From assembly GCA_036396895.1 (NCBI GenBank), contig DASWKB010000008.1, positions 1,796 through 65,795 on the forward strand: DNA of 64,000 nt, written 5' to 3'. The stretch is from a bacterium. Lineage in GTDB: Bacteria > Omnitrophota > Gorgyraeia > Aquiviventales > Aquiviventaceae. Below, piece by piece: positions 6,837 to 58,407 of this stretch (position 1 is the stretch's first letter; every line of letters begins with the position of its first letter). The position numbers and the translations under genes were made by a program. The notes beneath the pieces are model-generated. The model was not told the origin of the DNA, did no database searches, and was given only the letters and a program-made list of their open reading frames with translations.

Positions 6837-7150
6837 ACGACCAACAACAAGCAACCAGAGACCAGCAACCAGAGACGGGGGGAGAGGGGCGAGAGGCGGG
6901 GGGCGGGGGACATAATCGTGTACCGTCGTACTACGGCGTTCACTGGTCTGAAGCTGGAAGCAAGACGCTGGAAACTGGAATGATCAGGGGGACCTCCCCG
7001 CTTGTTCCATCCTCTAGCTTCCAGCTTCGAGCTTCAGACTTGTTTGGCAGGATGTCCCTTGTTGCTTGTCGCTTGTTGCTTGTCGCTTGTTGCTTGTCGC
7101 TTGTCGCTTGTTGCTGCGTGGACGGTGGACTGTGGACTATGGACTGCGGA
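6837..7150. repeat. Composite intergenic mosaic element, copy 2. CAACCAG-word and CTTGTYG-word outer arms enclose a G-tract and a GCTGGAA-word hairpin, followed by a GTGGAC array.
   Basis: 6837-6876 (acgaccaacaacaagcaaccagagaccagcaaccagagac) is complementary in word content to the 7-nt array at 7054-7115 (cttgttg cttgtcg ...). G-tract at 6877-6909. Hairpin arms at 6945-6982 and 7007-7040. It lies immediately 3-prime of pilT. Confidence 0.85.
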
Positions 7151-10161: not shown

Positions 10162-10290
10162 CGGGGCATGGGGCGTGCCAAGTGCGGAGTGTGGAATCTG
10201 TGCAAAATGCGGAATTGGGAATTCGGAATTTGGAATGTCAAACCGCAGGTGATTCCGCATTCCGCATTCCACATTCCGCATTTGGCACGG
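10162..10290. repeat. GGAATTS / ATTCCGC heptamer-word hairpin module
   Basis: ...gcaaaatgcggaattgggaattcggaatttggaatg ... gattccgcattccgcattccacattccgcatttggcac. Related to 18885-18968 and 20252-20335. Confidence 0.8.
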
Positions 10291-12074: not shown

Positions 12075-12600
12075 TGTCAAATGCGGAATGCGGAATTCGG
12101 AATTGGCCTTGTCCGGCCACGAAACGTGACGCTGGTGCATTGATGCATCATGGCAGCGCCTTGATCGTTGTCGGTCGCCATTGCCGTCTCGTCCATGTGT
12201 TCCGTCTGTCCGTCATCATTGGGGCATGGGCCACGGGGCACGGGGCGTGGGCCGTGTCGTGCGATCGTTGAACTGGTAGAAGGTGGAAGATGGAAGGTGG
12301 AAATGTTCCCTTGTACTTTCTACCTTCCATCTTCTACCTTCTATCTTCTATATGATGTGACGGTCATCCCCACGCCGTGCCCCGGAGCGAACGAAGTGAG
12401 CGGAGTCCTGAGCGAAGTCGAAGGACCCGCCCCGTTCCCCATGCCCCCCGTGCTGACGGAACAAACGGGCAGAACGGGCATGAACTTGTCACTTGTCACC
12501 TGTCACTTGTCACGCGTTTCTCTGGTCGCTGGTCTCTGGTCGCTGGTCGCTGGTCTCTGGTTGCTGGTTGCTGGTCGCCGGTCGCTGGCCGCTTGTCTGC
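12075..12600. repeat. Largest mosaic element in the window. Three-tier nested inverted repeat plus a conserved GAGCGAA core. Its last module overlaps the lspA 3-prime end.
   Basis: Tier 1: 12275-12303 pairs with 12317-12350 (GGTRGAA / CTTCYAT heptamers; 26 of 29 complementary). Tier 2: 12221-12254 pairs with 12369-12384 plus 12427-12448 (GGGGCAC words). Tier 3 is weaker: 12183-12214 with 12455-12485. A cttgtca array lies at 12488-12512 and a CTGGTYG array at 12515-12590. Confidence 0.85.
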
Positions 12601-13494: not shown

Positions 13495-16332
13495 TTACTC
13501 GGTTGCGTGAGTGCCTGGCAGCGTCGGCATGCCCGCCACGGCCTGGACGCACCGCGCGCACAGCTGCGGATGGTCCGCATGCGCTCCGACGCTGTCCAGG
13601 TGCTTCCAGCACCGCCCGCACTTGGCGCCCGGCGCGCGGCTGATCCGGATGCCGGCCAATCCCGGCACGCCGGTCTCGTCCGCGTCCTGCGGCCCCGCGG
13701 CGGCCACGGCGACCTCCGACACCACGAACGCCTCCGCGAGCGTGTCGCGATGCGCGTGCAGGTCCCGCAGGAGCTCCGGGTCGCGCGCGCTGAGCGTCAC
13801 GCGGGCCTCCAGCGGGCTGCCGATCACCCGCTTGAGCCGTTCGGCTTCGAGCGCCTTCATCACGGCGCCGCGCACCGCGAAGAACGTGTCCCAGCGCGCG
13901 GCCGCCGCCGCATCCAGCGCCCCGCCCTCCGGAGCCGTCCAGGCGCCGAGCCCGGCGAAGGGTTCGCTCACCCACTGCGCCTCGCGCATGAACTGCCACA
14001 CCTCATCCGTCGTCACGACGAGGACGGGCGCCAGGGTCGCCACAAGCGCGCGCAGTATAGCATAGAGCGCGGTTTGCGCACAGCGCCGTTTCGCCGAGTC
14101 CGCAGGCTCCGTGTACAGGCGGTCCTTCAGGGCGTCCAGGTAGCACGACGAGAGGTCCTGTACGCAGAACCGGTAGACGGCCCGAATCGCGTCGTGAAAC
14201 TGGTACGCCTCGTAGGCGCGCGTCACGTCCTCGCACAGGGCAGCGGTCCGGTGGAGAGCCCACCGGTCCAGCTCGCCGAGCTGCCGCGCCGGCACCGCCG
14301 CGCGGGGATGAAAATCGAACAGGTTCGCCAGCAAATACCGGAACGTGTTGCGGATCTTCCGGTACGATTCGGCTGTCTGCTCGAGAATCTCGTCCGAAAT
14401 CCGCACGTCTTCGCGGTAATCCGACGAGGCGACCCACAGCCGCAGGATGTCGGCGCCGTAGCGTGCCGTCACCTCCTGCGGCGCGATGACATTGCCCAGG
14501 CTCTTGGACATCTTGCGCCCGTCTCCATCCACGACAAACCCGTGCGTGAGCACCTGACGGTACGGCGGCGCGCCCTTGAGCGCCGCGGCCGTGATCAGCG
14601 AGACTTGGAACCACCCCCGGTGCTGATCCGACCCTTCAAGATACAGATCCGCCGGCCAGCGCAGGCCCGGCCACGTCTCAGGCCGCAGCACCGCGGCATG
14701 GCTGACCCCGGAATCGAACCACACGTCCAGGATATCCGGATCCTTCCTGAGCTCCCTTCCGCCGCAGTCCGGGCACGCCAGCCCCGGCGCGAGCTGCGCG
14801 GGCGTCTCGGTGAACCAGGCCTCGAGGCCGCGCTCGGCGAGCGCGGCCTCGATCCGCTCGATGGCCGCGACGTCGAGCAGCGGGCGTTCGCAGGCGGCGC
14901 AGTGCAGCACCGGAATCGGGCTGCCCCAGTACCGCTGCCGGGACAGGCACCAGTCGGGACGGGACTGCAGCATGCCCGCGATGCGTCCGAGCCCCGCGTC
15001 CGGCACCCAGCGCACGCCGCGGACGGCCTCGAGCAGCATCGCGCGGAACGGGTCGGTCACGCGCAGAAACCACTGCGGCGTCGCGCGGAAAATGACCGGC
15101 TGTTTGCACCGCCAGCAGTGGGGATAGGAGTGCTCCAGGGGCTCCTCCCGTAGCAGGAGGCCCCGGGCCGTCAGATCCCGGATGATGTCGGGCGTCGCGT
15201 CCCATACCGTCCGGCCCGCCCACGCCGGCACCTCCTGCGTGAACCGCCCGCGCTCGTCCACCGGCGAGAGCACCTCGAGCCCCGCCGAGCGGCCGATGAG
15301 GAAGTCTTCATGCCCGTGTCCGGGCGCGATGTGGACCACGCCCGTGCCCTCGGTCAGCGAGACCCCGGCATCGAACACGGCGCGCGACCCGCGCGCCGCC
15401 AGCGGCGCCCGGCAGACCATGCCGTCCAGGGCGCGCCCGTCGAACTCGGCGACCCGCGCGGCGCCGGGCGCCCCGAGCTTGGCCAGGAACGCCTCGGCGA
15501 CGTCGGAGGCGACCACCAGCTGGCTCGTCCAGCGCGCGTCCGTGAACACCGCATACCGGGCGTCCGGATGGAAGCACAGCGCCACGTTCGCCGGCAGCGT
15601 CCAGGGCGTCGTCGTCCAGGCCACCACCGCCGTCGGGCGGCCGAACGCGTCCCGCGCGTCTGCCGGCAGTCCCGCCGGCGCGCGCTCGACCGGGAACGCC
15701 ACGTAGATCGACGCGTCGCGGCGGTCCTCGTACTCGACCTCCGCCTCCGCCAGCGCGGTTTCGCACGTCGCGCACCAGTACACCGGCTTCATGTCGCGCA
15801 CGATGTATCCCCTGCGCACGAGCTCCTTGAACGACCGGAGCACCGTCATCCCGTACTCGGCCGACATCGTGAGGTACGGGCGCGCCCAGTCCCCGACCAC
15901 GCCAAGCCGCTTGAACTGCTCCCGCTGGATGCCGACGTATCGCTCCGCGTACGCGCGCGCGAGGCCGCGGAACTCATGCTGGGCGATGTCGCGCTTGGTG
16001 AGCTTCCGCTCCTTGAAGAGCTGGTGCTCGATCGGCATCCCATGGCAGTCCCAGCCCGGCACATACGGCGCGTCGTAGCCCCGGAGCACCTTGTAGCGCA
16101 CGATGACGTCCTTGAGGATCTTATTCAGGGCGTGCCCGATATGGATATCCCCGTTGGCGTACGGCGGGCCGTCATGCAGCACGAACGTCTCGGCGCCGGC
16201 GCGCGCGCGGCGCATCAGTCCGTACAGGTCCTCGGAGTCCCATCGGGCCAGGAACGCCGGCTCGCGCTCCGGAAGATTGGCCTTCATCGGAAACGTCGTC
16301 TTCGGAAGATTCAACGTGGTTTTATAGTCCAT
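13495..16332 (-). CDS. ileS: Isoleucyl-tRNA synthetase
   Basis: 945 aa with the HIGH motif (PYANGDIHIGH), KMSKS, and a C-terminal zinc-binding CxxC pair. Confidence 0.95.
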   Translation of the reverse strand: MDYKTTLNLPKTTFPMKANLPEREPAFLARWDSEDLYGLMRRARAGAETFVLHDGPPYANGDIHIGHALNKILKDVIVRYKVLRGYDAPYVPGWDCHGMPIEHQLFKERKLTKRDIAQHEFRGLARAYAERYVGIQREQFKRLGVVGDWARPYLTMSAEYGMTVLRSFKELVRRGYIVRDMKPVYWCATCETALAEAEVEYEDRRDASIYVAFPVERAPAGLPADARDAFGRPTAVVAWTTTPWTLPANVALCFHPDARYAVFTDARWTSQLVVASDVAEAFLAKLGAPGAARVAEFDGRALDGMVCRAPLAARGSRAVFDAGVSLTEGTGVVHIAPGHGHEDFLIGRSAGLEVLSPVDERGRFTQEVPAWAGRTVWDATPDIIRDLTARGLLLREEPLEHSYPHCWRCKQPVIFRATPQWFLRVTDPFRAMLLEAVRGVRWVPDAGLGRIAGMLQSRPDWCLSRQRYWGSPIPVLHCAACERPLLDVAAIERIEAALAERGLEAWFTETPAQLAPGLACPDCGGRELRKDPDILDVWFDSGVSHAAVLRPETWPGLRWPADLYLEGSDQHRGWFQVSLITAAALKGAPPYRQVLTHGFVVDGDGRKMSKSLGNVIAPQEVTARYGADILRLWVASSDYREDVRISDEILEQTAESYRKIRNTFRYLLANLFDFHPRAAVPARQLGELDRWALHRTAALCEDVTRAYEAYQFHDAIRAVYRFCVQDLSSCYLDALKDRLYTEPADSAKRRCAQTALYAILRALVATLAPVLVVTTDEVWQFMREAQWVSEPFAGLGAWTAPEGGALDAAAAARWDTFFAVRGAVMKALEAERLKRVIGSPLEARVTLSARDPELLRDLHAHRDTLAEAFVVSEVAVAAAGPQDADETGVPGLAGIRISRAPGAKCGRCWKHLDSVGAHADHPQLCARCVQAVAGMPTLPGTHATE

Positions 16333-16450
16333 GACAATTATGCGGCTGAGACCGGCGAGCGATCATGCCGGCGCGGGAGAGCAGACGTGCATGTGTGCAT
16401 TCGTGCAGAGCTTCGATTGTTGATGCCACTGCATCCCCGAGAAGCCGAAA

Positions 16451-16545
16451 GTGGAAGCTGGATGTCGTCGTGGTGTATCGGCGTTGCCATGTTACTTGTT
16501 GCTTCTTGCTGGTTGCTTGTTGCTGGTCGCTAGCCCTTTGTCGCT
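16451..16545. repeat. Short mosaic element (GCTGGAW word plus a CTTGTTG/CTGGTTG array) just 3-prime of yggT
   Basis: gtggaagctggatg at 16451-16464. gttacttgttgcttcttgctggttgcttgttgctggtcgctag at 16491-16533. Confidence 0.7.
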
Positions 16546-16846
16546 AGCCAAGGCGATGCGACAGGTCGTAGAGGGACGCCACGAGGAACAGCCGGAGAAA
16601 CCAGATGCCCAGGAGCGCCGCCAGCGGCGAAAGATCCAGCATGCCCACGACCGTAAACGGCAGCGTGCGGCGGATCCAGGCGAACACCGGCTCGGTCACC
16701 GCCCGCAGGAATTGCACGACCGGGTTGTACGGATCCGGACTGACCCATGAAATCATCACCGAGACGAAGATGACGAAACTGTAGATCCACAGGACCCGGT
16801 CGATGATGACCGCAGTCGCCTGCAAGAGATTGCCGAGCACGAACAT
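16544..16846 (-). CDS. yggT: YggT-family membrane protein
   Basis: 100 aa reading ...ISWVSPDPYNPVVQFLRAVTEPVFAWIRR.., the typical YggT motif. Confidence 0.8.
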   Translation of the reverse strand: MFVLGNLLQATAVIIDRVLWIYSFVIFVSVMISWVSPDPYNPVVQFLRAVTEPVFAWIRRTLPFTVVGMLDLSPLAALLGIWFLRLFLVASLYDLSHRLG

Positions 16847-16879
16847 CGCGATCCCTCCGTTCGCCTGCTCCGCGCCACG

Positions 16880-17722
16880 CTACCGCGCGGCGCGCGACAA
16901 GGCCCGCGAGCGCGCCGCCGCCGCCCGCACGGCACCGACGATGGCGGCATGCGCGCGGCGGGCCGCCAGCACCTTGAGCGCCGCCTCGGTCGTGCCCCGT
17001 TTGGACGCGACGGTGGCGATCCACTCGTCAGGGTCCCGCCCGCCCCGTTCAAGCAGCGCCAGCGCGCCGCGCAGCGTCGCGGTAACCGCGCGGGCCGCGA
17101 GCGGCGCCGGCAGCCCGAGAGATACCGCCGCCTCCCTCCACGCGCGCACGAGGTACAACACGTACGCGGGCCCGGACCCGCTGACGGCCGTGACCGCGTC
17201 GAAGTGCGACTCCGGCAGCTCGACGACCTCGCCCACCGTGGCGAAGATCGCCGCCACCGCGCGCCGGTGGCGCGCGGTGCACCGACGGCCGAACGCGAGC
17301 GCGGCGAATCCGGCTCCCGCCGTCGCCGGCAAGTTCGGCATGACCCGCGCCACGGGCATGCCGGGCAGCCGGGATTCGAGCCACCCGAGCCGGATGCCCG
17401 CCGCGATCGAGATGACGAGCGTCCGGCGATCCATCGCGCCCGCGAGATCCCTCAGCGCGCCGGCAAGCTGCTGGGGCTTGACCGCCAGCACCAGCACCCG
17501 GCACTGGCGCGCCACCGCGCGGTTGTCCCGCGTGACGGATGCGCCCGAGCGCCTGAGCGCGCGGCGCGCCGCGGCCGAGGGATCCGCGACCCAGAGCCGG
17601 CCCGCCGGCATGCCCGCCGCCCGCAGGCCCACCGCCAGGGCGCGGCCCATGGTTCCGCCTCCGATCACGCCGACGCTCGTCGTCCTGAGCTGCGCCGGCA
17701 CGGACGCGCGAGGCGCCGTCAT
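16880..17722 (-). CDS. proC: Pyrroline-5-carboxylate reductase
   Basis: Start at MTAPRASVPAQLRTTSVGVIGGGTMGRAL (ATG at 17722; ATGA overlap with the yggS stop). Also contains LAVKPQQ and SGSGPAYV. The C-terminus reads KRGTTEAAL. Confidence 0.85.
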   Translation of the reverse strand: MTAPRASVPAQLRTTSVGVIGGGTMGRALAVGLRAAGMPAGRLWVADPSAAARRALRRSGASVTRDNRAVARQCRVLVLAVKPQQLAGALRDLAGAMDRRTLVISIAAGIRLGWLESRLPGMPVARVMPNLPATAGAGFAALAFGRRCTARHRRAVAAIFATVGEVVELPESHFDAVTAVSGSGPAYVLYLVRAWREAAVSLGLPAPLAARAVTATLRGALALLERGGRDPDEWIATVASKRGTTEAALKVLAARRAHAAIVGAVRAAAARSRALSRAAR

Positions 17723-18432
17723 GCTCCGAGCGCCGTCCGCGCGCCGAATATCGCCGTCCCGATCCTCACGATGTCCGCTCCCTCTTCCACGGCCACGTCG
17801 AAATCCTCGGACATCCCCATCGACAGCGCAAGCGACGTCGCCGGCCATCCGAGCCCGGCGGCGATCTCGTCGCGAAGCTCCCGCATCCGGCGAAAGACAG
17901 GACGCGCCGACTCGGGATCGTCCGACCAGGGCGCGATGGCCATCAACCCGGCCAGGCGAAGGTGCGCGGAACCCGCCGCCCGGCTGGCGAGCGGCTCCGC
18001 CAACTGAGGCGCGCAGCCGTGCTTCGCGGGCTCGCCCGCCACGTTCACTTGGATGAAGACGTCAAGCGTGCCCGCCTGAGGCGCGGCAGCGCGGTGCGCC
18101 TCGAGCGCGTCGATAAGCTCCCCGGAGTCCGCCGAGTGCACCGCATCGAACAGGACCGCCGCGAGCTTGGCTTTGTTGCGCTGCAGATGCCCGATCAGAT
18201 GCCAGCGGCCGCGCCGGCCTTCGCCCCGGCCGAGGAGCTCGAGCTTGCTCCTGGCCTCTTGGACCCGGCTTTCGCCGAACGCGTCCAGGCCCAGCGCCGC
18301 GGCCGCCCGGATCCGCTCAAGCGGCACGCCCTTCGTGACGGCCAGCAGGGTGACGGACGCCGGATCGCGGCCCGCCCGGCGGCAGGCTTCGCCGACGCGC
18401 CGGCGAACTTCGGCCACGTTGGACGCCAGCAT
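17719..18432 (-). CDS. yggS: YggS-family pyridoxal-phosphate homeostasis protein
   Basis: Start at MLASNVAEVRRRVGEACRRAGRDPASVTLLAVTKGVP. Also contains HLIGHLQRNK and MGMSEDF. Confidence 0.85.
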   Translation of the reverse strand: MLASNVAEVRRRVGEACRRAGRDPASVTLLAVTKGVPLERIRAAAALGLDAFGESRVQEARSKLELLGRGEGRRGRWHLIGHLQRNKAKLAAVLFDAVHSADSGELIDALEAHRAAAPQAGTLDVFIQVNVAGEPAKHGCAPQLAEPLASRAAGSAHLRLAGLMAIAPWSDDPESARPVFRRMRELRDEIAAGLGWPATSLALSMGMSEDFDVAVEEGADIVRIGTAIFGARTALGA

Positions 18433-18439
18433 GCGGAGT

Positions 18440-18445
18440 ATTTTA
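18440..18445 (-). promoter_or_regulatory. TAAAAT -10-like hexamer 7 nt upstream of the yggS ATG; possible leaderless transcript
   Basis: Minus strand reads gcTAAAATactccgcATG. Confidence 0.25.
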
Positions 18446-18447
18446 GC

Positions 18448-19008
18448 ATACGGATTACACGGATTCAGATTGGATTGCACGGATTCAAAGAGGATGACAC
18501 AGATTGACGATTCAATCCGTATAATCCGTTGTGAATCCGTATAATCCGGCAGTGAAAAACCCGGGACTGTCCCGGGTTTTAATTGGGGACTGTCCCGGGT
18601 TTCCCCGGGTTTTCCAGCTCAAACGCGGGGACAGCCCCGAGGACCACATTCGCGTACCGTGCACCGGAACGCAATTCGCAGTGTCGCGTAACGCGCAACG
18701 CGTAACGTGGGTCTCAAGCGTGATACATGCGGGCCAGTTCCCGAGGTGCCATCCCGCCGGAAGCGGGGTGGCTCCGAGGGGGCTGGGCCGCTCGAAATGA
18801 GGTCAAAGCTGGTCGGAAGCTGGAAGCTGAACGTCGAAGGGGCATGGGGCGCGGGGCGAGGGGCGGGGGAACTGGGGAGCTATGGCAAAATTCGGAATTC
18901 AGAATTGGGAATTCGGAATCGGACGCTCGTCATTCCGCATTTCGAACTCCGCATTCCGAATTTGGCACAGTTGCTGGTCCCTTGTTGCTGGTAGCTTGTC
19001 GCTTGTTG
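18448..19008. repeat. Repeat-only spacer between ftsA and yggS. Order: ACGGATT hairpin, CCCGGGAC palindromes, ACGCGTW words, GCTGGAA words, G-tract, GGAATTC hairpin, CTTGTTG array.
   Basis: Modules at 18448-18550, 18555-18615, 18672-18710, 18808-18838, 18839-18878, 18885-18968 and 18968-19008. No credible ORF is present. Confidence 0.85.
18555..18615. terminator. Tandem A-tract / CCCGGGAC-N-GTCCCGGG / T-tract palindromes; candidate bidirectional intrinsic terminators downstream of ftsA
   Basis: gaaaaacccgggactgtcccgggtttt at 18555-18580, with a degenerate second copy at 18585-18615. The same element occurs at 62038-62103. Confidence 0.55.
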
Positions 19009-20148
19009 CTAGAAATACTCAACGAGGACGGCTTTGGCGCGCTCGAGCACGCGGCCGAGCGGGCCGCCCGGCGAAGCCAAGGCCGCTCCGGCGCGCGGGC
19101 GCGAGGCGAGCTCGAGGAGTCCGATGGCCGGGCAGAGCGCGAGTTGCCGGGAGAGGTCGGCGGAGCGGTGCGTGCGCGGGCTCCGGCAGAGCGCCGTCGG
19201 GATTCCGAGCGTGCGCTCCACCCATTCGACGAAGCCGTCCATCAGCGCCGCGCGTCCGGCCACCAGCACGAGGTCGGGCTTGGGTTCGCCTCCGAGCACG
19301 GTCCTGATCCCCTCTTCCAAGCGAGCCCAGGCCGCGTCCAAATGGGCCCGGACGCGCTCTTCACGGCTGGCGGTGCCTTCCCGGATTGAGGCGGTGGCCT
19401 GCTCGAGCGTCACGTCAAGCTCCCGGGCGAGATCCCGCGCCAGGCTCACGCCGCCCCACGGCTCGACCCGGCAGGCGGTCAGCACCCCTGCCTCGAACAC
19501 CGCGAGATCGATCGAGAGCCCTCCGAGATCGATGACGAGCACTCGCCCACCCGCGGACCGTTCGTCCGCCGCCCCGGCCAACGCGGCCGCCGGAGCGTAC
19601 CGAACGTCCAATGCTTCCAGCCCGACCGATTCCACCGCTTCCAGGAGCGTCCGGCGCACGGCCACCGGCATCGTCACCAGAAGGAAGTCCCCCTGGAGGC
19701 GCGTCGCGCAAAGCCCTCGGGGATCGCCGACACGCGCGAACCCGTTGCCGGCGTAGCCCAGACATTCCATATGCAGCACGTCCCGGTCAATCGCCAGCGA
19801 CTGGTTGAGGGCCGCAGTCCGCAACCGCGCGACGTCCCGCGCCTTGACCGCCACGGGCTCGTCAGCGATCGGCACCGCCGCCCGCACCCGTTCGCTCTGG
19901 AGCGCCGGGTGGGACAGGCAGACGAGCGCGCGGGTCAGTTCCGCGGTGACGCCGGTCGCGTCGATCGCCGCTTCGATCGCGCGCGCCACGACAAGCGGAT
20001 CCGGCACGCCCGAGTCGTTCGGCGCCGGATACGGCTCGACGCCGCTGCCGAGCAGTTCCCAGCCCGGCGTGCGCTCGTGGCTGAGGCCGATGGCGCAGGC
20101 GACCTTGGTCCATCCGATGTCCAACGCCACCACCGGCTTCGCCGTCAT
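19009..20148 (-). CDS. ftsA: Cell division protein FtsA (actin-like ATPase)
   Basis: 379 aa with VVALDIGWTKVACAIG, VLVIDLGGLSIDLAVF and an amphipathic C-terminus (RVLERAKAVLVEYF). Confidence 0.85.
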   Translation of the reverse strand: MTAKPVVALDIGWTKVACAIGLSHERTPGWELLGSGVEPYPAPNDSGVPDPLVVARAIEAAIDATGVTAELTRALVCLSHPALQSERVRAAVPIADEPVAVKARDVARLRTAALNQSLAIDRDVLHMECLGYAGNGFARVGDPRGLCATRLQGDFLLVTMPVAVRRTLLEAVESVGLEALDVRYAPAAALAGAADERSAGGRVLVIDLGGLSIDLAVFEAGVLTACRVEPWGGVSLARDLARELDVTLEQATASIREGTASREERVRAHLDAAWARLEEGIRTVLGGEPKPDLVLVAGRAALMDGFVEWVERTLGIPTALCRSPRTHRSADLSRQLALCPAIGLLELASRPRAGAALASPGGPLGRVLERAKAVLVEYF

Positions 20149-20180: not shown

Positions 20181-20418
20181 GTCAACATTGGGCATGGGAC
20201 ACGTTATGGTACGGAGCACGGGGCGAGGGGCGGGGTAACTGGGGAGCGATTGCAAAATTCGGAATTCGGAATTGGGAATTCGGAATCGGACGCTCGTCAT
20301 TCCGCATTCCGAACTCCGCATTCCGAATTTGGCACAGTTGCTGGTCTCTGGTTGCTTGTCGCTTGTCGCTTGTTGCTTGTCGCTTGTTGCTCGTTGCTTG
20401 TCGCTCGTTGCTTGTTGC
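20181..20418. repeat. Mosaic element between ftsQ and ftsA (G-tract, GGAATTC hairpin, long CTTGTYG array)
   Basis: 20219-20346 matches 18852-18979 with 5 mismatches over 128 nt, in direct orientation. Confidence 0.9.
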
Positions 20419-24478: not shown

Positions 24479-25613
24479 GGACGATCACCGGGTCCGGTGC
24501 TCGGCGCGGCGGCGCCTGCAGGTCCGCGTCGGCTTCCCCGACGATGATCCGGGCCAGCCGCTCGGCCGCGTCGCTCCTGGCGAGCCCGCGCATCCGAGCC
24601 GCCATGCCCTCAAGGCGCAGCCGGTCCCGCGCCAGCGTCCGAATGAGATCCGCCAACCGCGCCGACACGTCCGGGGACTCCTCCAGCACGATGCCGCCGC
24701 CAGCGGCTTCGACCCACCGGGCGTTCGCCACCTGATGGGCGCCTGCGTGCGGATACGGGATCAGGATCGCCGGCGTGCCGGTCTGCGCGAGCTCCGCAAC
24801 GGTGGCCGCGCCCGCGCGCGCAATCGCCAGCGTCGCGCCCGCATACACGCTCGCCATGTCATCCCGAAACGGCTCGATCCGCCCGGCGACGCCCGCCTGC
24901 CTGTACGCGGCTTCCACGGCGCGGACGTCGTCCGTGCCCGTGAGATGCCGCAGCGTCCAGCGCGCCCGCTCCTCCTTCGAGAGCTCCGGCAGCATCCCGC
25001 AGACGATCCGGTTCACGGCCCGCGAGCCCTGGCTGCCTCCCAGCACGACGAGCGCGAACGTCTGGGCGGCCGGACGCGCGGCGGGATCCGGCGCGGGCCA
25101 GGCCCGCACCGGCATGCCCGTGACGACCGGCTCCACTCCGTGCGGCACGCCCTGCGTACCGGGAAACGACACCGCGACCACGTCGGCGCGGCCGGCGAGC
25201 CAGCGGTTCGCCCGGCCCATGACGACGTTCTGCTCATGGATGATCGTCCGCGCCCGGCCCCGGGCCGCAAGGATCACGGGCACACAGACGCCTCCGCCGA
25301 ATCCCACGACGGCCGCAGGCCGGTGCGCGCGGATCCAGCGCCGCGCCGACCCCCACAGCCGCGCGGCGGCCAGCCACCGGAGCGTCCCGGATCCCGAGGG
25401 AATCGCGACCGGCTCGCACGCGAGCCCGTCCGCCGACGCCCGCGCCACGAGGACGTCGGTCAGCGACGCGCTGCGCCCCCGGCGGGCGTACCACACCGTC
25501 ACCGGGACGCCCGAGGCCCGCACGAGCCGGGCGGCCTCGAGCGCCGGCACGAGGTGCCCGCCGCTGCCTTCAGTCACGAAGAGCACCGGAGATCCCCGTT
25601 CGCGCGCCGTCAT
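24471..25613 (-). CDS. murG: Undecaprenyldiphospho-muramoylpentapeptide beta-N-acetylglucosaminyltransferase
   Basis: 380 aa with GGSGGHLVPALE, VLGGSQGS and RAGAATVAELA. Confidence 0.9.
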   Translation of the reverse strand: MTARERGSPVLFVTEGSGGHLVPALEAARLVRASGVPVTVWYARRGRSASLTDVLVARASADGLACEPVAIPSGSGTLRWLAAARLWGSARRWIRAHRPAAVVGFGGGVCVPVILAARGRARTIIHEQNVVMGRANRWLAGRADVVAVSFPGTQGVPHGVEPVVTGMPVRAWPAPDPAARPAAQTFALVVLGGSQGSRAVNRIVCGMLPELSKEERARWTLRHLTGTDDVRAVEAAYRQAGVAGRIEPFRDDMASVYAGATLAIARAGAATVAELAQTGTPAILIPYPHAGAHQVANARWVEAAGGGIVLEESPDVSARLADLIRTLARDRLRLEGMAARMRGLARSDAAERLARIIVGEADADLQAPPRRAPDPVIVHA

Positions 25614-26685
25614 GACTCGCCTTGAAGATGAGCGCGCAGGCCACGAGATTCATCACCATGGAGGTCCCGCCGTACGAGATGAGCGGCAACGGCAGCCCCT
25701 TCGTCGGCAGCATGCCCGTCACGACGCCGATATTGACCATCGCTTCCAGGCCGATCATGGCGACCAGGCCGCAGGTCAGATATTTCCCGAACCGGTCCTC
25801 GATGAGCATCGCCATGCGGAACCCCAGGATGAGAAACAGCGCGAACGCCAGGAGGACCGCCGTCGTGCCCACCAAGCCCAGCTCCTCTCCGATGATCGCC
25901 AGGATGAAATCGGTATGCGCGCTCGGCAGGTAGAAGAGCTTCTGCACGGACCCGCCCACGCCCAATCCGATCAGCCCTCCGCTGGCGAGCGCGAAATACG
26001 ACTGCAGGATCTGATAGCCGCTGCCGTAGGGGTCGTTCCACGGATCCAGGAACGCGAAGATGCGCCGGCGCCGGTACTCCGCGCCCATGATCAACACGAC
26101 GAGCAGCGCCGCCGCGGCGCCCAAGAGGCCGAGCACGTGCTGCGGCTTGGCGTTGGCGACGATCAGGAGCAGCATCGCCACGGCGCCCATGACGGTGGCC
26201 GTGCCGAGATCCGGCTGCAGCAGCACGAGCCCCGCGCACAATCCCGTCACGGCCACCGCGGGGAGCACGCCCTTGCGGAATTCCCTGATGAACCCGGCCT
26301 TGCGCGCCAGGAGATCGGCCAGGTACACGACCAGCGCCAGCTGGGCGAACTCGGAGGGCTGCAGGCTGAGCCGGCCCAGCCTGAACCAGCGCCGGGCGCC
26401 TCCGATTTCCTGCCCGGCGACGAGCACCAGCACCAGGAGCGCCAGACTCAGCAGGATCGCCCACCGGCTGCCCGCGCGCAGCCGCGCATAGGGCACGGCC
26501 AGGCACGCGCCGGCCAGCGCGGCGCCGCAGCCGATCGCCACCAGGTGCTGCTTCACGAAATGGAAGCCGTCCCCGTACGCGAACTCCGCGGCGAGCGTGC
26601 TGGAGGAGTACACGGCGACGGTCCCGATCCCCAGCAGGAACAGGAGGACCAAGAGCAGCGACTGTCGCAGTTGTGTCGGCGTCAT
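25570..26685 (-). CDS. ftsW: SEDS-family cell division protein FtsW
   Basis: 371 aa, polytopic, with LQPSEFAQLALV, HTDFILAIIGEELG and LPLISYGGTS. Confidence 0.9.
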   Translation of the reverse strand: MTPTQLRQSLLLVLLFLLGIGTVAVYSSSTLAAEFAYGDGFHFVKQHLVAIGCGAALAGACLAVPYARLRAGSRWAILLSLALLVLVLVAGQEIGGARRWFRLGRLSLQPSEFAQLALVVYLADLLARKAGFIREFRKGVLPAVAVTGLCAGLVLLQPDLGTATVMGAVAMLLLIVANAKPQHVLGLLGAAAALLVVLIMGAEYRRRRIFAFLDPWNDPYGSGYQILQSYFALASGGLIGLGVGGSVQKLFYLPSAHTDFILAIIGEELGLVGTTAVLLAFALFLILGFRMAMLIEDRFGKYLTCGLVAMIGLEAMVNIGVVTGMLPTKGLPLPLISYGGTSMVMNLVACALIFKASHDGARTGISGALRD

Positions 26686-26713: not shown

Positions 26714-27595
26714 TCACCGCTCGGCCTGCACCGCGAGGTCTCCCACGCGCATCGCCTCGCCCGTCAGCACGTCGCACGCCGCCAGGCGGTTCCGGACCCG
26801 GATCGTCCGCACCTGCCCGACCGGCAGCGACGCGCGCAGGACGTCGAAGATCGTGCCGATGCGCACCCCGTCCTTGCTGCCGCGATTGACGACCACGAAC
26901 TGGTGCTGGTCATTCACTTCGATCAGGCGTCCGTGCACGGGACTCGCCTGGACGCCCTCCACGCGCACCGTCGCGAGCTCGACCGCGCCGCCCGCAACGC
27001 TGTCCATGAGCGCCGCGGTGTCCAGCTTCGGCCCCTGGCTGCTGTCCGCCAGTACCTCCACGCCGGTCACCGGAGGCGGCTCGCTCCCGCGCTCGAGATG
27101 CTCGATGGACTTGCGGTAATCCCGCTCGTACATCGCCAGCTGACTGCGGACGTTCCGGATATCCCGCTCCATCTCCCGGACTTCCGCCGACGCGTGCTCC
27201 GCCGCCGCCTGCGCCGCGTCCCGCTCCGCCCGAACGAATTCCAGCTCCGATTGCAGCCGGGCCTGCTCGCCGTCCAGCCGCTCATGGTCCTGCAGGGTGG
27301 CGCTGAGCGTGCCGCGCACCCCTTCCAGATTGGCGACCATCTCCTCCAGCTGTCGATCCAGACCCTGCACGCGATCCGACAGCGCGTCCCGTTCCGTATC
27401 CAGCGCCGCGCGCTGCTCGTCGAGTTCGATATTCTTGGCCCGTAGCGCGGCGATGTTGGATTTCGCCGTGTCGATCTGGCCGGTCAGCACCTTCGCCCGG
27501 CTCACGTGCTCGCGCGAGGACAAATAGCCCACCGTGCCAAGGCCGCCGAAGCCGACCAGGAGCGCCCCGAGCACCACCAGCACCAGTCGCTTCAT
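26714..27595 (-). CDS. Membrane-anchored coiled-coil protein with a C-terminal small beta-barrel-like domain; inserted between murD and ftsW
   Basis: Start at MKRLVLVVLGALLVGFGGLG (ATG at 27595). About 180 aa follow with a heptad-like charged sequence (..NIELDEQRAALDTERDALSDRVQGLDRQLEEM..). The C-terminus is VVVNRGSKDGVRIGTIFDVL...VGDLA. I recognise no family. Confidence 0.6.
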   Translation of the reverse strand: MKRLVLVVLGALLVGFGGLGTVGYLSSREHVSRAKVLTGQIDTAKSNIAALRAKNIELDEQRAALDTERDALSDRVQGLDRQLEEMVANLEGVRGTLSATLQDHERLDGEQARLQSELEFVRAERDAAQAAAEHASAEVREMERDIRNVRSQLAMYERDYRKSIEHLERGSEPPPVTGVEVLADSSQGPKLDTAALMDSVAGGAVELATVRVEGVQASPVHGRLIEVNDQHQFVVVNRGSKDGVRIGTIFDVLRASLPVGQVRTIRVRNRLAACDVLTGEAMRVGDLAVQAER

Positions 27596-27686
27596 CCCGC
27601 CCCCCCGCCGCCCCTGCGGGAGCCGTCCGTCCGCCGCGTTCGCGCCGCCCCTGCGCGGATCGGGCGGCGCCCGCGCCGTGCGCCGC

Positions 27687-29123
27687 TCACGTCCGGTCCC
27701 CGCCGGCGCCCGCCGCGAGGCTCGCCGCCAACGCGGCGACGCCAAGGCGCGCCACGACCGCCTTGAACGCGGCGCCCCGCGCCTCGAAATTCCTGAACAT
27801 GTCGAAGCTCGCGCATGCCGGAGAAAAGAGCACCGTCGCGCCAGGTCCGGCCAGGCCGCGCGCGGTCTCCACCGCCTCCTCGAGCGTGCCGGCTTCCCGC
27901 ACCGGAGGCGCGCCGCCTCCCGCGGAGCCCAGCAGCGCGCACAGCTCCGCGCGCGCTTCGCCGATCAGCACGACGCCCCGCACGCGCGGGTCCGATAACA
28001 GCGGCACCATCGGAGAGAGATCGAGCCCCTTATTCCGTCCGCCGATGATCGGGACGACCGGCCCTCGCGTCCGTCTCAGCGCGTACATGAGGCTCTCCGG
28101 CGTGGTGGACTTCGCGTCGTTGACGAACGTCACGCCGCGCACGCGTCCGGCGGGCTCCATCCGATGCTCCAACCCGCGAAACGCGCGCACCTGCTGCCAG
28201 GTGAACGCGTCGGGAATCCCGAAGATTCTCGCCGCCTGGAGCACCGCCTGCACGCTCGGCCCGATCGCCCCCTGCGTCTGCGGCGCGAGCGCGAACGCCG
28301 GCGCGTTGACGGCGCCGCGCCCGAACCACACGCTCCGGGCGGTGAGCCCCGCCCCTCGCGCCGCGATCTCGGGATCGCCGGCATTCAGGACGGCCCAATC
28401 CTCCCGGGTCTGCCGGGCGAACAGGCGCATCTTGGCCTGCACGTACGCGAGGTGATCGTGATGCCGATCCAGATGATTGGCGCCGATGATGAGGAGCATG
28501 CCCACGGAGGGGCGGAAGCGCTCGCAGCCCAACAGCTGGAACGAGCTCACCTCGACCACCGCGACCCCCTCCGGCGGCAGCGCCTCAACGACGCTGCTGA
28601 ACGGCGTGCCAAGATTCCCGCACGCCACCGCGGCCCGCCGCGCCGCCCGCAGGATGGCCGTCAGCAGCGTCACGGCGGAGCTCTTGCCGTTGGTGCCGGT
28701 CACCGCGACCACCGGCGCGCGGCAAAAATGGAACGCGAGCTCGATCTCGCTGATGACCGGAAGCTGCCGCGCGCGGGCCCAGGCCAGCGCCGGCGTGTCC
28801 TCATGGATGCCGGGGCTCGTGACGATGAGATCCGCCGCCTCGACGGCCCGCGTCGTGTGCCCGCCCAGCTCGACGTCCGCGGCGCCGTACTCCAGCAGCG
28901 CCTCGCGCGCCGCCCGCAGCACCGGTGAGTCCTGCGCATCCGTCACGCGGACCTCGCAGCCCAGCCGGCACAGGAGCTCCGCGGCGGCCCGGCCGCTCTT
29001 CCCCAGGCCGACGACGGTCACCCGCCGGCCCTTCCATGAGCAGCCGAAGACGTCCACCGAGGCGGGCCGCGCCGCCGAGGCGTCGGCGCTCGGGCGCGTC
29101 TGCGACACGGCCACCGGCGTCAT
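27687..29123 (-). CDS. murD: UDP-N-acetylmuramoylalanine--D-glutamate ligase
   Basis: Start at MTPVAVSQ (ATG at 29123; ATGA overlap with the mraY stop). VVGLGKSGRAAAELL and GTNGKSS are present. Confidence 0.9.
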   Translation of the reverse strand: MTPVAVSQTRPSADASAARPASVDVFGCSWKGRRVTVVGLGKSGRAAAELLCRLGCEVRVTDAQDSPVLRAAREALLEYGAADVELGGHTTRAVEAADLIVTSPGIHEDTPALAWARARQLPVISEIELAFHFCRAPVVAVTGTNGKSSAVTLLTAILRAARRAAVACGNLGTPFSSVVEALPPEGVAVVEVSSFQLLGCERFRPSVGMLLIIGANHLDRHHDHLAYVQAKMRLFARQTREDWAVLNAGDPEIAARGAGLTARSVWFGRGAVNAPAFALAPQTQGAIGPSVQAVLQAARIFGIPDAFTWQQVRAFRGLEHRMEPAGRVRGVTFVNDAKSTTPESLMYALRRTRGPVVPIIGGRNKGLDLSPMVPLLSDPRVRGVVLIGEARAELCALLGSAGGGAPPVREAGTLEEAVETARGLAGPGATVLFSPACASFDMFRNFEARGAAFKAVVARLGVAALAASLAAGAGGDRT

Positions 29124-30118
29124 GGCCACCACCCCGCCGTCGCCACCCCCGCGGACGCCAGCAGCGCACCCGCGATCCAGAAGCGCACCATCAGTTTCGG
29201 CTCGGGCGTGCCCCCCAGTTGAAAATGGTGGTGCAGCGGCGCCACGCGGAAGACCCGCCGCCCGCCGCGCCACCGGTACGACGCCACCTGCACGATCACC
29301 GATCCGGCCTCCGCCACGAAGACGCCGCCGACCACGACGAACCAGAGCGCCGCCTGGCTCAACAGCGCGATGGCCCCCAGGGCGGCTCCCAATCCCAGCG
29401 CCCCGACGTCGCCCAGGAACACCGACGCCGGGTACCCGTTAAACCAGAGAAATCCGGCGCACGCGCCCGCGAACGCGGCGCACCACGGCAGCAGCCGACG
29501 GTCGGCCGCCGGATCCAAGAGCAGCCACACCGCCAACGCCGCGAACGCGACGGTCCCGCATCCCGCCGCCAGGCCGTCCATCCCATCGGTCAGATTCACC
29601 GCATGCGCCGACGCGGCCATGACCAGCATCGCAAACGGCACGCACAGCGGCCCGAGCGCCGCGGCGCGTCCGCTCCAGGGCAGCGCCACCGCCGCCCGCT
29701 CCGCCGGCCCTACCGCCAGCGCCGCGCCGACCGCCGCGCCCACGCCCAGCGCCACCGCCAGTTTCGGCGCGGTCCGGACGCCCAGCGCCTGCGGGCGGCG
29801 CAGCTTCAGCACGTCATCCAGGAGTCCGAGCGCGGCCAGCGCCGCGACCGACCCGAGGACGATCCAGCCGTCCGCGTGCCGCAGTCCGCCCCCGCACGCC
29901 GCCGCGACGGCGGCCGCGGCCAGCACCAGCACGCCGCCCATCGTCGGCGTGCCCGCCTTGTGCGCATGCAGCTCCTGCAGCGGCGGGCAATCGCCGTGGC
30001 GGAGCGGCTGCACCATCTGCGCGCGGGCCAGCCGCCGGATGGTGGCGCGCCCGGCGAGCAGGCACAGCCCGGCGGAGACCACGAACACGCCCGCCGCCTG
30101 GCTCAGCGCGTCCCGCAT
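29120..30118 (-). CDS. mraY: Phospho-N-acetylmuramoyl-pentapeptide transferase
   Basis: 332 aa with KAGTPTMGG, NLTDGMDGLA and APLHHHFQL. Confidence 0.9.
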   Translation of the reverse strand: MRDALSQAAGVFVVSAGLCLLAGRATIRRLARAQMVQPLRHGDCPPLQELHAHKAGTPTMGGVLVLAAAAVAAACGGGLRHADGWIVLGSVAALAALGLLDDVLKLRRPQALGVRTAPKLAVALGVGAAVGAALAVGPAERAAVALPWSGRAAALGPLCVPFAMLVMAASAHAVNLTDGMDGLAAGCGTVAFAALAVWLLLDPAADRRLLPWCAAFAGACAGFLWFNGYPASVFLGDVGALGLGAALGAIALLSQAALWFVVVGGVFVAEAGSVIVQVASYRWRGGRRVFRVAPLHHHFQLGGTPEPKLMVRFWIAGALLASAGVATAGWWP

Positions 30119-53223: not shown

Positions 53224-53513
53224 CGGGGGCGGGAGACGAGGGACTTCACTGGTCGGAAGCTGGATGCTAGAAGCTGGACGCTGGAATATTCGTTCGTCTA
53301 TTCCGTCTGGTCCGCCATTTCCGTCTGTCCGTCAACGCTGGGGCATGGAGCATGGGTAATAGCATGAGAGGATGGAAGGTAGAAGATGGAAGGTAGAAGG
53401 TAGAATTGCTACCTTCTCTTTTCCATCTTCTATCTTCTATCTTCTATCTTCCATCTTCCATCTTCCATCTTCCACCTTCTCATGGTAATCCCCACGCCAT
53501 GCCCCACGCCCCG
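53224..53513. repeat. Mosaic element with the clearest heptamer array
   Basis: GCTGGAW words at 53245-53285 and CCGTC words at 53293-53333. The hairpin has arms 53370-53405 (ggatggaaggtagaagatggaaggtagaaggtagaa) and 53409-53480 (ctaccttctcttttccatctt ctatctt ctatctt ctatctt ccatctt ccatctt ccatctt ccacctt). The outer GGGGCAT / ATGCCCC arms lie at 53340-53357 and 53490-53513. Confidence 0.9.
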
Positions 53514-53524
53514 TCTCGGGAATG

Positions 53525-56500
53525 TTACGCGGGAGAAGCGGCGGACACGGGCTGTTGGGCGGGCTTGCCGTTGGCGAACTTGGCGGAGAGCACGCGGGAA
53601 ATGCCCGGTTCCGCCATCGTCACGCCGTAGAGGCTGTCGGCGTTCGTGATCGTCTTCTTGTTGTGCGTGATGAGGATGAACTGGGACAGCTCCAGGAACT
53701 CTTCGAGCACCCGGGTGAAGCGGTCGACGTTGGCCTCATCGAGGGGGGCATCGATTTCGTCCAGAATGCAGAACGGGGACGGCCGCACCTTGAACAGCGC
53801 GAAGAGCAGCGCGATGGCGGTCAGCGCGCGCTCGCCCCCGGAGAGCAGGCTGATGTTCTGCAGACGCTTCCCCGGCGGACGCGCGACGATGTCGATCCCG
53901 GATTCCAGGACGTCGCCCTCGTCCATGAGCGCCAGGTCCGCCTGCCCTCCGTTGAAGAGCCGGGCGAAATAGCCCTGGAACTCCTGCTTGATGCGCTCGA
54001 ACGTTTCCTTGAACTGCGTGCGGGCGGTCTTGTTGATCTGCGCGATCGAGGCCTTGAGATCGTCGCGCGCCTGGATCAGGTCCTGCTGCTGCGACTGCAG
54101 GAACTCATGGCGTCGCTTGAGCTCGTCATACTCTTCGACGGAGCCCAGGCTCACCGGCCCGAGCCCTTCGAGCTTCTTGCGCAGCTGCAGCACCTCCTCC
54201 GCCATCGGCGCGCGCTGCTCCTCCGGGATCGGCTCGCCCTCCACCGCCAGCTCCGCCTCGATGGCCGCCTCGTCGATCTGGTACAGCTCCCGCAGCCGCT
54301 CGATCAGGTGGCTCCGGCGGTAGCCGCGCTCGGAGCGCTGCTGCAGGCACTCCTGCGTCTCCCGGGCGAGCGAGGCCAGCTGCTGCTCCACCTCGAGCAC
54401 GCGCGGCAGCACCTGGTCCCGGGCCGACTCCTCCTGCTGGAGCGCCTCGGCGATGCCCGAGGCGTCCGTTTCCAGCGCCGCGCGCCGCTCGATGTGCTGT
54501 TCGCGGCCGGCCTGATGGGCGTCCCGCTGTCCGGCGAGCTCCTCGCAGCGCGCCGAGGCGTCACGACGCTGAGCCCGCTTCGTTTCGAGCTGCTGCGCGA
54601 GCGACGTCCGCTCCGCCTCCGCCTCGCGCCGCGACGCGCCGGCGGCGTCCGCCCGGTCGATCAGCGCGCGCAGCGCCGCGTCCGTCTGCGCCCGCGCCAC
54701 CAGCACCTGCTCCCGCCGCCGGCCGTGAGAGTCCCGCGCCGTCTGCGCCTCCTGCAGCGCCTGCTGGATCCGCCCGTGCCGCGCTTCGGCCTCGCGAACC
54801 GCCTGTTCCGCGGACGCGAGCGCGTGCCGGAGCCCGCCCTGCTCTGCGGCGAGCTCCTGGATCTCCAGATCGCGCCCGCGCTGCTCCTCGTCGATGCGCG
54901 CCAGCTCGTGCTCCAGCCTGAGCGCGTGCGCGTCGATCTTATGCAGGCTCGGCGCCAGATGCGCGAGCTCCCCTTTCAGCGATTCCTGCGCGGTCACCGC
55001 CGCCTGCCAGGCCTGCTCCGCCTCGCGCGCCTGCTGATCGAGCGCCCGCACGTCCTGCTCGAGCGCCTGCACGCGCGCCGCGCCCTGCTCCCAGCGCTGC
55101 CGGCGCCCGACGCGACGGCCCGACACGTCGTCATCCGGCGCGCCCTGCGGGGCGTGCTGTCCCGTCAGCCGCCACGACCGCCGGTCCCACCGCTCGCCGC
55201 GCAGGCTCACGAGCCGCGAGTCGGGCAGCCGCCCGGCGTCGGCCAGGAGCGGGTGGAGATCCTCGACCATCCATGAATCGTTGAGCAGCCAGTCCACGAG
55301 CGGCCGGTAGAGCGGATCGACCCTGACCAGTTCCCGGACGGACGCGCGCGCGTCCGCCTGGCGCGCCTCCGCCCCGGCGGGCGCTTCCGCCGGGCAGTCC
55401 GACAGCACGAGGAACCGCGCGCCTTCGAGCGTCCGCGCGCTCAACTGCTCACGGCAGCGCATCATCACCTCGCGGTCCCGGACGACCAGCGCATCCGCCA
55501 GCGGCCCGAGCGCCGCCTCGACAACGTCCTCGTAGCCGGGCGCCGCCTGCACGAGATCCGCCAGCGGGCCGAACAGCCCCTCCACGGGCTCCTGCATCAG
55601 TGCCCGGACCGTATCGGAGAACCCGTCGTAGCGCCGCCACAGCTCTTCCAGCAGCCGCGCGTGGGTGCGCTCGCCGGCCAGCTGATCCCTGAGCTGATGC
55701 AACCGGCCCTGGAGCTCGTGGCGACGCGCGCCCGCCGCGTCCAGCCCCTGCTGCGCCTCGGCCGAGCGCCGCTCGAGCGCCTCGTGCTGCGTCCGGACGG
55801 CGCTGTGCTCCTCGCGGGCCGCCGCGAGGCGCGCGCGCACGTCCTCGATGCCCGCGGCCTGTTGCGACCGCTGGCCTTCGAGCCGGCCGAGCTGCCCCTC
55901 GACGGACCGCAGCCGCGAGGCCGCGTCCGTAAACTCATTGCGCTGGTGCGTCGCCTCCGACGCGGCCGCGAACAGGTCCGTCTTGATGCCGCCCAGCGCC
56001 GACTCGGCCTCGCGCAGCGCCGCGTCCAGCCCCGCGAGGTCCGCGTCGTGCTGCGCAAGCTGCGGCTCGATCCCGCTGCGCTGCGCGTGGATCTCGGCCT
56101 CCGCGCCCGACAGGCGCTCAAGCTGCGCGCTCAACTGTTCGACGCGGCCCGACAACTGCAGCTCGTCCTGCTCCAGCTGGACGAGCTGCGCCTTCAGCTC
56201 CTCGATCCACCGGCCCTTGAGCTCGAACTGGCTCTCATGCTGCTCGATCTGGCTCGCGCATTCGACGATCTGCGTCCTGGCGTCCTGGAGCCGCTGCTGG
56301 ACCGCCGACACCGCGGCGTTGCACGCCTCGAGCGACCGGACATGCTCCTGCTTGCGCGACTCCAGCGTCTCCTGCGTCGCAGTCAGCTGCTGTAGGCGCC
56401 GCTCGAGCTCGCCCGAGCGGGACCGTCCCTGGCGGAGCTCATCCACGGTGAGCCTGAGCTCCAGCGACTTGAGCCGCTCCCACTGCGTCTGGTACTGGCG

Positions 56501-58093: not shown

Positions 58094-58407
58094 GAAGCAA
58101 CCAGCAACCAGAGACCAGCGACCAGTCTTGTACCATCACGAAACATCACGTTTGTGCAGGGGTGTATCTGTCAAAGCTTCCGTTGTTCCTGTTCGTGCGT
58201 TCCGTCCATTCCGTCATTGATCATTCCAGCTTCCAGCTTCTAGCCTCCAGCTTCCGACCACTGAACGCAGCGATGCACGGTACACGGTTCACGGTACTCG
58301 CACGTTGCGCCTCGCCCCGAAGCGAACGGAGTGAGCGAAGTCCTGAGCGAAGCCGAAGGACCCGCCCCGTGCCCCAGCGTTGACGGACAGCCGGAATCGG
58401 CGAATCG
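58094..58407. repeat. Mosaic element 3-prime of the second secretin
   Basis: CAACCAG words at 58094-58125, CCGTC words at 58196-58218, the TTCCAGC arm at 58221-58260, the GAGCGAA core at 58311-58375 and the GACGG arm at 58381-58407. Confidence 0.85.

Follow-up and report, generated by a model that had tools for sequence, protein, structure and literature searches.

A transmembrane, coiled-coil and β-barrel protein family of Omnitrophota with a member encoded between murD and ftsW

Introduction

The C-terminal domain of FlgT, TsaP and MreC are all periplasmic and serve as docking modules for envelope-spanning machines or peptidoglycan synthases. MreC is bitopic, with an N-terminal transmembrane (TM) helix, a coiled coil and two tandem small β-barrels; FlgT forms a periplasmic ring and docking module in the H-ring of Vibrio flagella (PF16538); and TsaP is a soluble periplasmic protein with a LysM domain and two FlgT-like C-domains (CI and CII). 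These TsaP C-domains are FlgT-like β-rolls that form a belt around the PilQ secretin (bioRxiv 10.1101/2020.05.29.123786). Here we analyse ORF-X, a gene lying between murD and ftsW in a 64,000-nucleotide (nt) stretch of bacterial DNA (contig DASWKB010000008.1; hereafter ‘the window’, to whose numbering all positions refer). Its product varies the architecture of these known periplasmic scaffolds and has a putative function; what is new is the uncharacterised family to which it belongs and the unusual capture of one of its genes by a division and cell wall (dcw) cluster.

Judged by the closest relatives of its FtsW, the window belongs in Candidatus Omnitrophota: the protein is 62–68% identical to FtsW of many metagenome-assembled genomes (MAGs) of that phylum. 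Most members of the phylum have not been cultured. They are often ultra-small, may live as predators or parasites, and next to nothing is known of how their cells work. Our best reading, which we hold with moderate confidence, is that ORF-X, a native gene, would encode an inner-membrane-anchored envelope scaffold, consisting of a periplasmic stalk and barrel and made here with the septal peptidoglycan genes.

Architecture of ORF-X

26714..27595, minus strand: ORF-X coding sequence, 293 amino acids (aa) plus stop, ATG start (open reading frame (ORF) list, codon usage).
27524..27586, minus strand: transmembrane anchor, aa ~4–24 (mean Kyte–Doolittle ~1.9–2.4).
27086..27508, minus strand: coiled-coil stalk, aa ~30–170, about 20 unbroken heptads (heptad periodicity and AlphaFold2).
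26954..27082, minus strand: disordered linker, Pro/Gly/Ser-rich, aa 172–214 (predicted local distance difference test (pLDDT) <50).
26726..26935, minus strand: C-terminal six-stranded β-barrel, FlgT-C/TsaP/MreC-like, aa 221–290 (pLDDT ~97, conservation and remote homologues).

ORF-X is a real, native gene, because its G+C content at third codon positions (GC3, 0.88) and synonymous codon usage, which is mid-range among its neighbours, are native and it has hundreds of homologues. The original prediction placed the ORF correctly and gave a length of 294 aa; this is the number of codons with the stop, and the protein itself has 293 residues. Its predicted N-terminal TM helix is borne out by a hydrophobic segment at aa 1–24 (mean Kyte–Doolittle ~1.9), a feature shared in the family (68 members, median 2.44).

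The segment that follows is an unbroken coiled coil, as predicted, although it measures about 140 residues rather than 180 and would be ~22 nm long if fully extended. Heptad power at period 3.5 reaches 3.33 for aa 30–170, compared with 0.18 ± 0.17 in shuffled sequences, none of which equalled it (0/2000). In an AlphaFold2 model made with a 68-sequence family alignment, residues 2–171 form a single continuous helix with a pLDDT of ~97. The linker then ends in VELATVRVEG, a divergent form of a family motif, VELPPIxVRK, and leads into the barrel.

Relatives of the barrel

The ORF-X barrel is a remote relative of the barrels of the FlgT C-domain, the TsaP C-domain and MreC. In Pfam scans of the 68 family members, 11 match FlgT_C (PF16538), at best with E 1.8e-10, and 14 match MreC, at best with E 3.6e-6. 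When the family profile is compared with sequences in the PDB, the top match is TsaP (3jc8, E 4e-5), followed by MreC chains (E 0.04–0.9). In Foldseek, run with the full-length model, the top match is FlgT of the LPHT ring (8z5n, E 4.9e-4); FlgT 3w1e (E 3.3e-3) and a set of MreC structures (2j5u from Listeria, E 2e-3, 25% identity; 6zlv, 32%; 6zm0, 30%; E range 2e-3 to 6e-3) are also matched. The prediction of a small MreC-like barrel was thus right at the level of fold class, and no clear homology to an unrelated, well-characterised family emerged from the Pfam, PDB and Foldseek comparisons. Homology to F1/V1-ATPases was not accepted, as matches to their N-terminal barrels, which dominated the first Foldseek run, reflect a generic fold.

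Could ORF-X be MreC itself, as an orthologue or a degenerate copy? Both proteins are bitopic, combine an N-terminal TM helix, a coiled coil and C-terminal small barrel, share the strand–turn–strand signature xxVNxGxxDGVxxG, superpose over ~65 columns with 25–32% identity and are encoded with cell-wall synthesis genes, and ORF-X gives a weak match to PF04085. That match (E 0.015–0.043), however, scores 14–15.5 bits against a cut-off of 28 and covers only positions 7–54 of the 147 in the profile. AlphaFold2 gives ORF-X one barrel instead of the two in tandem of MreC, its coiled coil is roughly twice as long and runs into a disordered linker, and the hhalign probability for a link between the families is 23%. 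Nor does ORF-X adjoin mreB or mreD; neither mreB nor mreC was found in the 64-kb window. A related Omnitrophota MAG (L002) carries a canonical MreC beside mreB (PF04085, E 2e-34, positions 1–145) together with two members of the ORF-X family. On the strength of the single barrel, the sub-threshold score and this coexistence, MreC identity was rejected; as a claim of membership it is effectively refuted, with next to no probability left to it.

The other likenesses are also partial. FlgT provides the best Pfam match at the family level and the best structural match, whereas ORF-X has neither the N- and M-domains of FlgT nor a signal peptide, and has a TM anchor and coiled coil instead; no flagellar genes were seen in any context examined (the window and the ROK-linked loci described below). 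Among solved structures TsaP gives the closest sequence match, but ORF-X has one β-domain where TsaP has two, no LysM domain in Pfam scans, and a membrane anchor with a long coiled coil in place of a soluble form. Proteins of the FtsB/DivIC/FtsL type (PF04977) resemble ORF-X in being dcw-linked and in having an N-terminal TM helix followed directly by a leucine-zipper coiled coil. They are ~100 aa long, their coiled coil is short and they lack a barrel, in contrast to the 293 aa and barrel of ORF-X, which scores 15 bits against PF04977 (cut-off 28.9); sub-threshold DivIC matches occur in 21 of the 68 family members. A small, separate FtsL-like gene lies downstream of rsmH in related dcw clusters. 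Matches of ORF-X to FtsB/DivIC, ZapB, EzrA, DivIVA and SMC-type proteins, all under their cut-offs, were rejected as generic coiled-coil noise, and a second sub-threshold Pfam match, beside that to MreC, was to DbpA.

A large uncharacterised family and its genomic contexts

The family came to light when a profile of the C-terminal domain, built from ORF-X and two relatives, was searched exhaustively. At E<=1e-3 the search returned 2053 representative clusters, of which 304 passed E<=1e-10 and 35 passed E<=1e-30; lengths are mostly 300–360 aa, with the domain at the extreme C-terminus. ORF-X itself scores E 2.6e-37, a value that is partly circular because it is in the profile; full-length tblastn comparisons of ORF-X with ROK-linked members reach E 1e-43. 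A word-indexed search with the single sequence recovered only ORF-X and two relatives, and with the C-terminal profile mostly short fragments. Genomic-contig matches that covered the generic barrel motif only (Polaromonas and others) were left out, and the best genomic match of the domain is in L002. By these sequence comparisons, ORF-X belongs to a large uncharacterised family with a TM/coiled-coil/barrel plan on Omnitrophota-type contigs.

Nearly invariant positions in the barrel include G239, G243, G247, R268, A273, C274, G285 and D286, and the conserved Cys is the single Cys of 49 of the 68 members. A VELPPI(V/I)VRK block precedes the barrel in most members and is divergent in both copies that are linked to dcw genes, reading VELATVRVEG in ORF-X and VQLDPVTVAP in the copy from another Omnitrophota cluster (L078, below). 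The Pfam and NCBIfam libraries searched held no family-specific model. Two Pfam accessions, PF27605.1 and PF24161.2, are precomputed on the NCBI version of the protein; neither appeared in our local Pfam scans, and one of them may be a newly created family for the ORF-X domain.

We examined the family’s contexts in 51 metagenome loci together with L001 and L002. A ROK gene (winged helix–turn–helix plus PF00480) lies immediately upstream of the family gene in all of the ~40 loci that include upstream DNA, and dcw genes adjoin the family gene in none of the ~50 loci. The ROK proteins are 64–87% identical between loci and as conserved as core dcw and cell-wall proteins. Conservation at the level of a core cell-wall enzyme is unusual for a regulator (an example ROK–family gene pair lies at L002 8033–10243).

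Downstream of the family gene, two arrangements recur. In the first, a GspF/PilC homologue (T2SSF, E 5e-71) follows, and the locus can continue with a pseudopilin (N_methyl), a T2SSJ-like protein, a 1035-aa T2SSK-like protein and a Big_13 protein; the GspF/PilC homologue is present in 15 of 26 long loci, several of which go on with the pseudopilin, T2SSJ-like and T2SSK-like genes. In the second, the family gene is followed by a LacI regulator, biosynthetic genes, a distant TM/coiled-coil/barrel paralogue, an EPSP_synthase-family (MurA-type) gene, mreB and mreC. The distant paralogue stands directly upstream of the MurA-type gene, mreB and canonical mreC at L002 ~14300–18557 and also in L053, L056, L061, L068 and L073, and this position beside mreB and mreC links another branch of the superfamily to the elongation machinery.

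The first arrangement makes an accessory role in a type IV pilus or type II secretion system (T2SS)-like machine a serious rival to an envelope scaffold made with the septal genes. ORF-X would then be a periplasmic connector to the secretin or platform, akin to TsaP, PilP or GspC, and its dcw site an incidental rearrangement. The frequent pilC and pseudopilin neighbours and the TsaP of the Myxococcus type IVa pilus machine as best solved-structure match both fit this explanation, and type-4a pili are reported to be common across all Omnitrophota classes (PMC10066038). Yet the constant neighbour is the ROK gene rather than any pilus gene, the other type of locus continues with LacI and biosynthetic genes, and the 64-kb window contains no pilus or T2SS genes. 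ORF-X also lacks the LysM and second FlgT-like domain of TsaP, and in two independent lineages the gene sits tightly between its neighbours within the dcw operon. We consider the pilus explanation rather unlikely.

A second serious rival takes the ROK protein as the functional partner, with ORF-X as a membrane tether or signal-sensing partner of a ROK regulator or sugar kinase and the copy here separated from it. The invariant gene order and the strong conservation of the ROK protein speak for such a partnership. Against this, the N-terminal tail is short (3 aa in ORF-X, family median 12.5 aa) and would offer little surface to a cytoplasmic partner if the N-terminus is inside; no ROK homologue was found in the window; and the conserved adjacency may reflect no more than a shared operon. 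This partnership seems to us improbable.

ORF-X in the dcw operon

27687..29273, minus strand: murD, upstream neighbour (TIGR01087, 355 bits, cut-off 212).
27596..27686, minus strand: murD/ORF-X spacer, 91 nt (no promoter-like or terminator-like site; no flanking direct repeats).
25570..26685, minus strand: ftsW, downstream neighbour, 28 nt past the ORF-X stop (TIGR02614, 374 bits, cut-off 337.5).
27596..27745, minus strand: possible N-terminal extension, 50 codons from TTG 27745, Arg/Gly-rich, considered unlikely (no Pfam signal).

The two TIGRFAM models confirm that ORF-X is inserted between murD and ftsW, as originally described. The minus strand reads rsmH, ftsI, murE, murF, mraY, murD, ORF-X, ftsW, murG, murC, murB, ddl, ftsQ, a divergent ftsA, yggS, proC and ileS. 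Around ORF-X, including its spacers of 91 and 28 nt, we found no flanking repeats, promoter-like or terminator-like sites or mobile-element signs, and the lack of consensus signals suggests that the gene is probably co-transcribed with murD and ftsW as part of the dcw operon. A recent foreign insertion was rejected on the native codon usage and GC3 and the lack of flanking repeats and mobile-element signs.

The only alternative start is TTG 27745, which would overlap the 3′ end of murD by 59 nt; no further in-frame start occurs between 27745 and 27595. NCBI record VGB20_01155 describes the same protein in a 343-aa version begun at this TTG. The true start of murD is probably internal to the ORF at 27687–29273, because the TIGR01087 match begins only at aa 84, leaving ~83 residues ahead of the MurD model; the longest murD ORF overlaps the end of mraY (29120–30118).

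Conservation of the insert

Nine related dcw clusters (L077–L085) were retrieved through their FtsW proteins. In eight of them no gene separates murD from ftsW, which overlap by 4 nt in six and lie ~125 nt apart in two, in line with the view that this junction is normally tight. The remaining cluster, L078 (GCA_975648395.1), has a 334-aa gene in the same slot, overlapping or abutting both neighbours, and its product is homologous to ORF-X over the full length (32% identity, E 5e-29). The search for the same insertion in related genomes therefore gave one positive among nine. Atypical codon usage and absence from relatives had been named as signs of a recent insertion; the usage is native and the slot is shared with L078.

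ORF-X and the L078 copy pair in 77 of 100 replicates of a neighbour-joining tree, both on long branches. Over the last 95 residues, ORF-X is 51–55% identical to ROK-linked members as against 44% to the L078 copy. Their hosts are not sisters: in a tree built on 12 concatenated dcw proteins (4303 columns) the window is the deepest branch relative to the nine relatives, and the two genomes pair in 7 of 200 replicates. Both a single ancient recruitment followed by several losses and two independent captures are possible. A copy has been captured in an otherwise rigid junction in a minority of lineages.

In the window (18480–20148), as in all nine relatives, the gene after ftsA is not ftsZ, and ftsA is consistently the last gene of the dcw cluster in this Omnitrophota group. 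The usual followers of ftsA in the relatives are yggS, proC, yggT and ileS, the set of genes that follows ftsZ in many other bacteria. No tubulin signature was found in any frame of the window, nor in 560 kb of related loci, a sample too small to bear on the presence of ftsZ. The missing ftsZ of the original prediction is a weak premise for a role of ORF-X: all nine relatives share the gap and eight lack the insert, so the gap does not hinge on the insert. The gap is a trait of the dcw cluster in this group, and is not proof of a genome without ftsZ. The ftsA-like gene at 19009–20148 (minus strand) is itself divergent, scoring 86 bits against a cut-off of 175.85 (TIGR01174), with SHS2_FTSA and FtsA Pfam domains present; FtsA of the relatives likewise gives only weak or faint Pfam matches.

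These data frame the proposal that ORF-X is a dedicated scaffold of the divisome or elongasome, a lineage-specific protein that organises FtsW–FtsI and compensates for the missing FtsZ. Its position within the dcw operon directly upstream of ftsW, the homologue in the same slot of L078, the pairing of the two copies in the tree, the lack of ftsZ after ftsA and a TM/coiled-coil/MreC-like barrel plan that resembles MreC and periplasmic divisome parts of the FtsB/DivIC type are all consistent with it. On the other side, the ftsZ gap occurs with and without the insert, the family’s usual home is unrelated to dcw genes, the DivIC and ZapB matches are sub-threshold, and the pairing of two copies from hosts that are not sisters may be long-branch attraction. 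In a published phyletic profile, Omnitrophota fall among phyla whose dcw genes it calls highly conserved (PMC12283558), and a genome-wide loss of ftsZ is only putative. We regard a dedicated scaffold of this kind as unlikely, and ORF-X does not replace FtsZ. The family does appear specific to Omnitrophota, as had been predicted; for a division or elongation scaffold the evidence is the position of the gene. From that position, occupied in two of ten clusters, a divisome-specific role is possible.

A proposed envelope scaffold

We return to the reading of ORF-X as an inner-membrane-anchored scaffold with its stalk and barrel in the periplasm. The short N-terminus and single TM helix would anchor the protein in the inner membrane, and the ~140-residue coiled coil, which most likely forms a parallel oligomer of ~20 nm, would together with the flexible linker hold the barrel off the membrane. 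By analogy with the relatives of the barrel, the barrel would be the partner-binding end, and the coiled coil a spacer and oligomeriser. The default locus of the family is a ROK gene, the family gene and, after it, type IV pilus/T2SS-like genes in one type and a LacI regulator in the other. The copies in the dcw operon, here and in at least one other Omnitrophota genome, would be produced together with the septal peptidoglycan machinery.

Several points weigh against this interpretation. Any partner protein is still putative. By itself ORF-X gives no FlgT_C match in Pfam and only a sub-threshold match to MreC, the best Foldseek matches include the unrelated N-terminal barrels of F1/V1-ATPases, which makes the fold generic, and alignment of the family profile with an Omnitrophota MreC by hhalign reached a probability of only 23%. 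Co-transcription was judged from consensus signals, and the promoters of this organism may differ from the sigma-70 type. Finally, charge does not settle the topology of ORF-X: by the positive-inside rule the family shows no preference, with a mean K+R of 2.1 ahead of the TM segment and 2.4 behind it.

The last point leaves room for the opposite orientation, in which ORF-X would be a membrane-tethered coiled coil like EzrA and its barrel would bind a cytoplasmic partner. The charge does not favour an N-in topology, and the three residues that precede the TM segment of ORF-X are compatible with N-out. However, some family members have Arg-rich N-terminal tails of 45–77 aa, which are unlikely to be translocated, and the barrel’s relatives in sequence (the FlgT C-domain, TsaP and MreC) are without exception periplasmic. 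We find the cytoplasmic orientation improbable, and by analogy with these relatives place the stalk and barrel of the proposed scaffold in the periplasm.

A more specific extension is that the two dcw-linked copies form a distinct orthologous subgroup that acts in some Omnitrophota divisomes, where a membrane-anchored ~20-nm stalk would link FtsW–FtsI with the peptidoglycan or the outer-membrane layer in a lineage whose dcw cluster is without ftsZ, and that the family as a whole is a novel kind of envelope-spanning tether with an FlgT-C-like barrel at its core. This extension is speculative and we doubt it. If the dcw-linked copies do act in division, they would be a new periplasmic divisome part; if they do not, the family would remain a candidate for a structural part of the envelope or the pilus apparatus in Omnitrophota. 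The large unnamed family defined here combines a TM anchor, a long coiled coil and an FlgT/TsaP/MreC-like barrel, and its genes have a very stable ROK partner gene and frequent type IV pilus neighbours.

Other features of the window

Many intergenic regions of the window contain 7-nt tandem arrays clustered side by side, among them AATTCGG (x5), CATTCCG (x4.6), GTTGCTT (x10), TGTCGCT (x9), CTGGTCG (x11) and CTATCTT (x10). The array regions, at 1218–1481, 6850–7150, 10175–10282, 12080–12600, 16490–16531, 18452–19003, 20256–20418, 53255–53480 and 58224–58255, coincide with local dips in GC content, and the same units recur at distant loci. AATTCGG and CATTCCG are near reverse complements and could form long hairpins. 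A repeat of this type appears to be translated in the linker of one homologue from the ORF-X family, P0002 (IRNSE...IPNSE), and the arrays may be a dispersed repeat element of Omnitrophota. Elsewhere, a 1205-aa ORF at 53525–57142 (minus strand) shows strong signs of coding (GC3 0.92). Giant ORFs are a known feature of Omnitrophota (PMC10066038).

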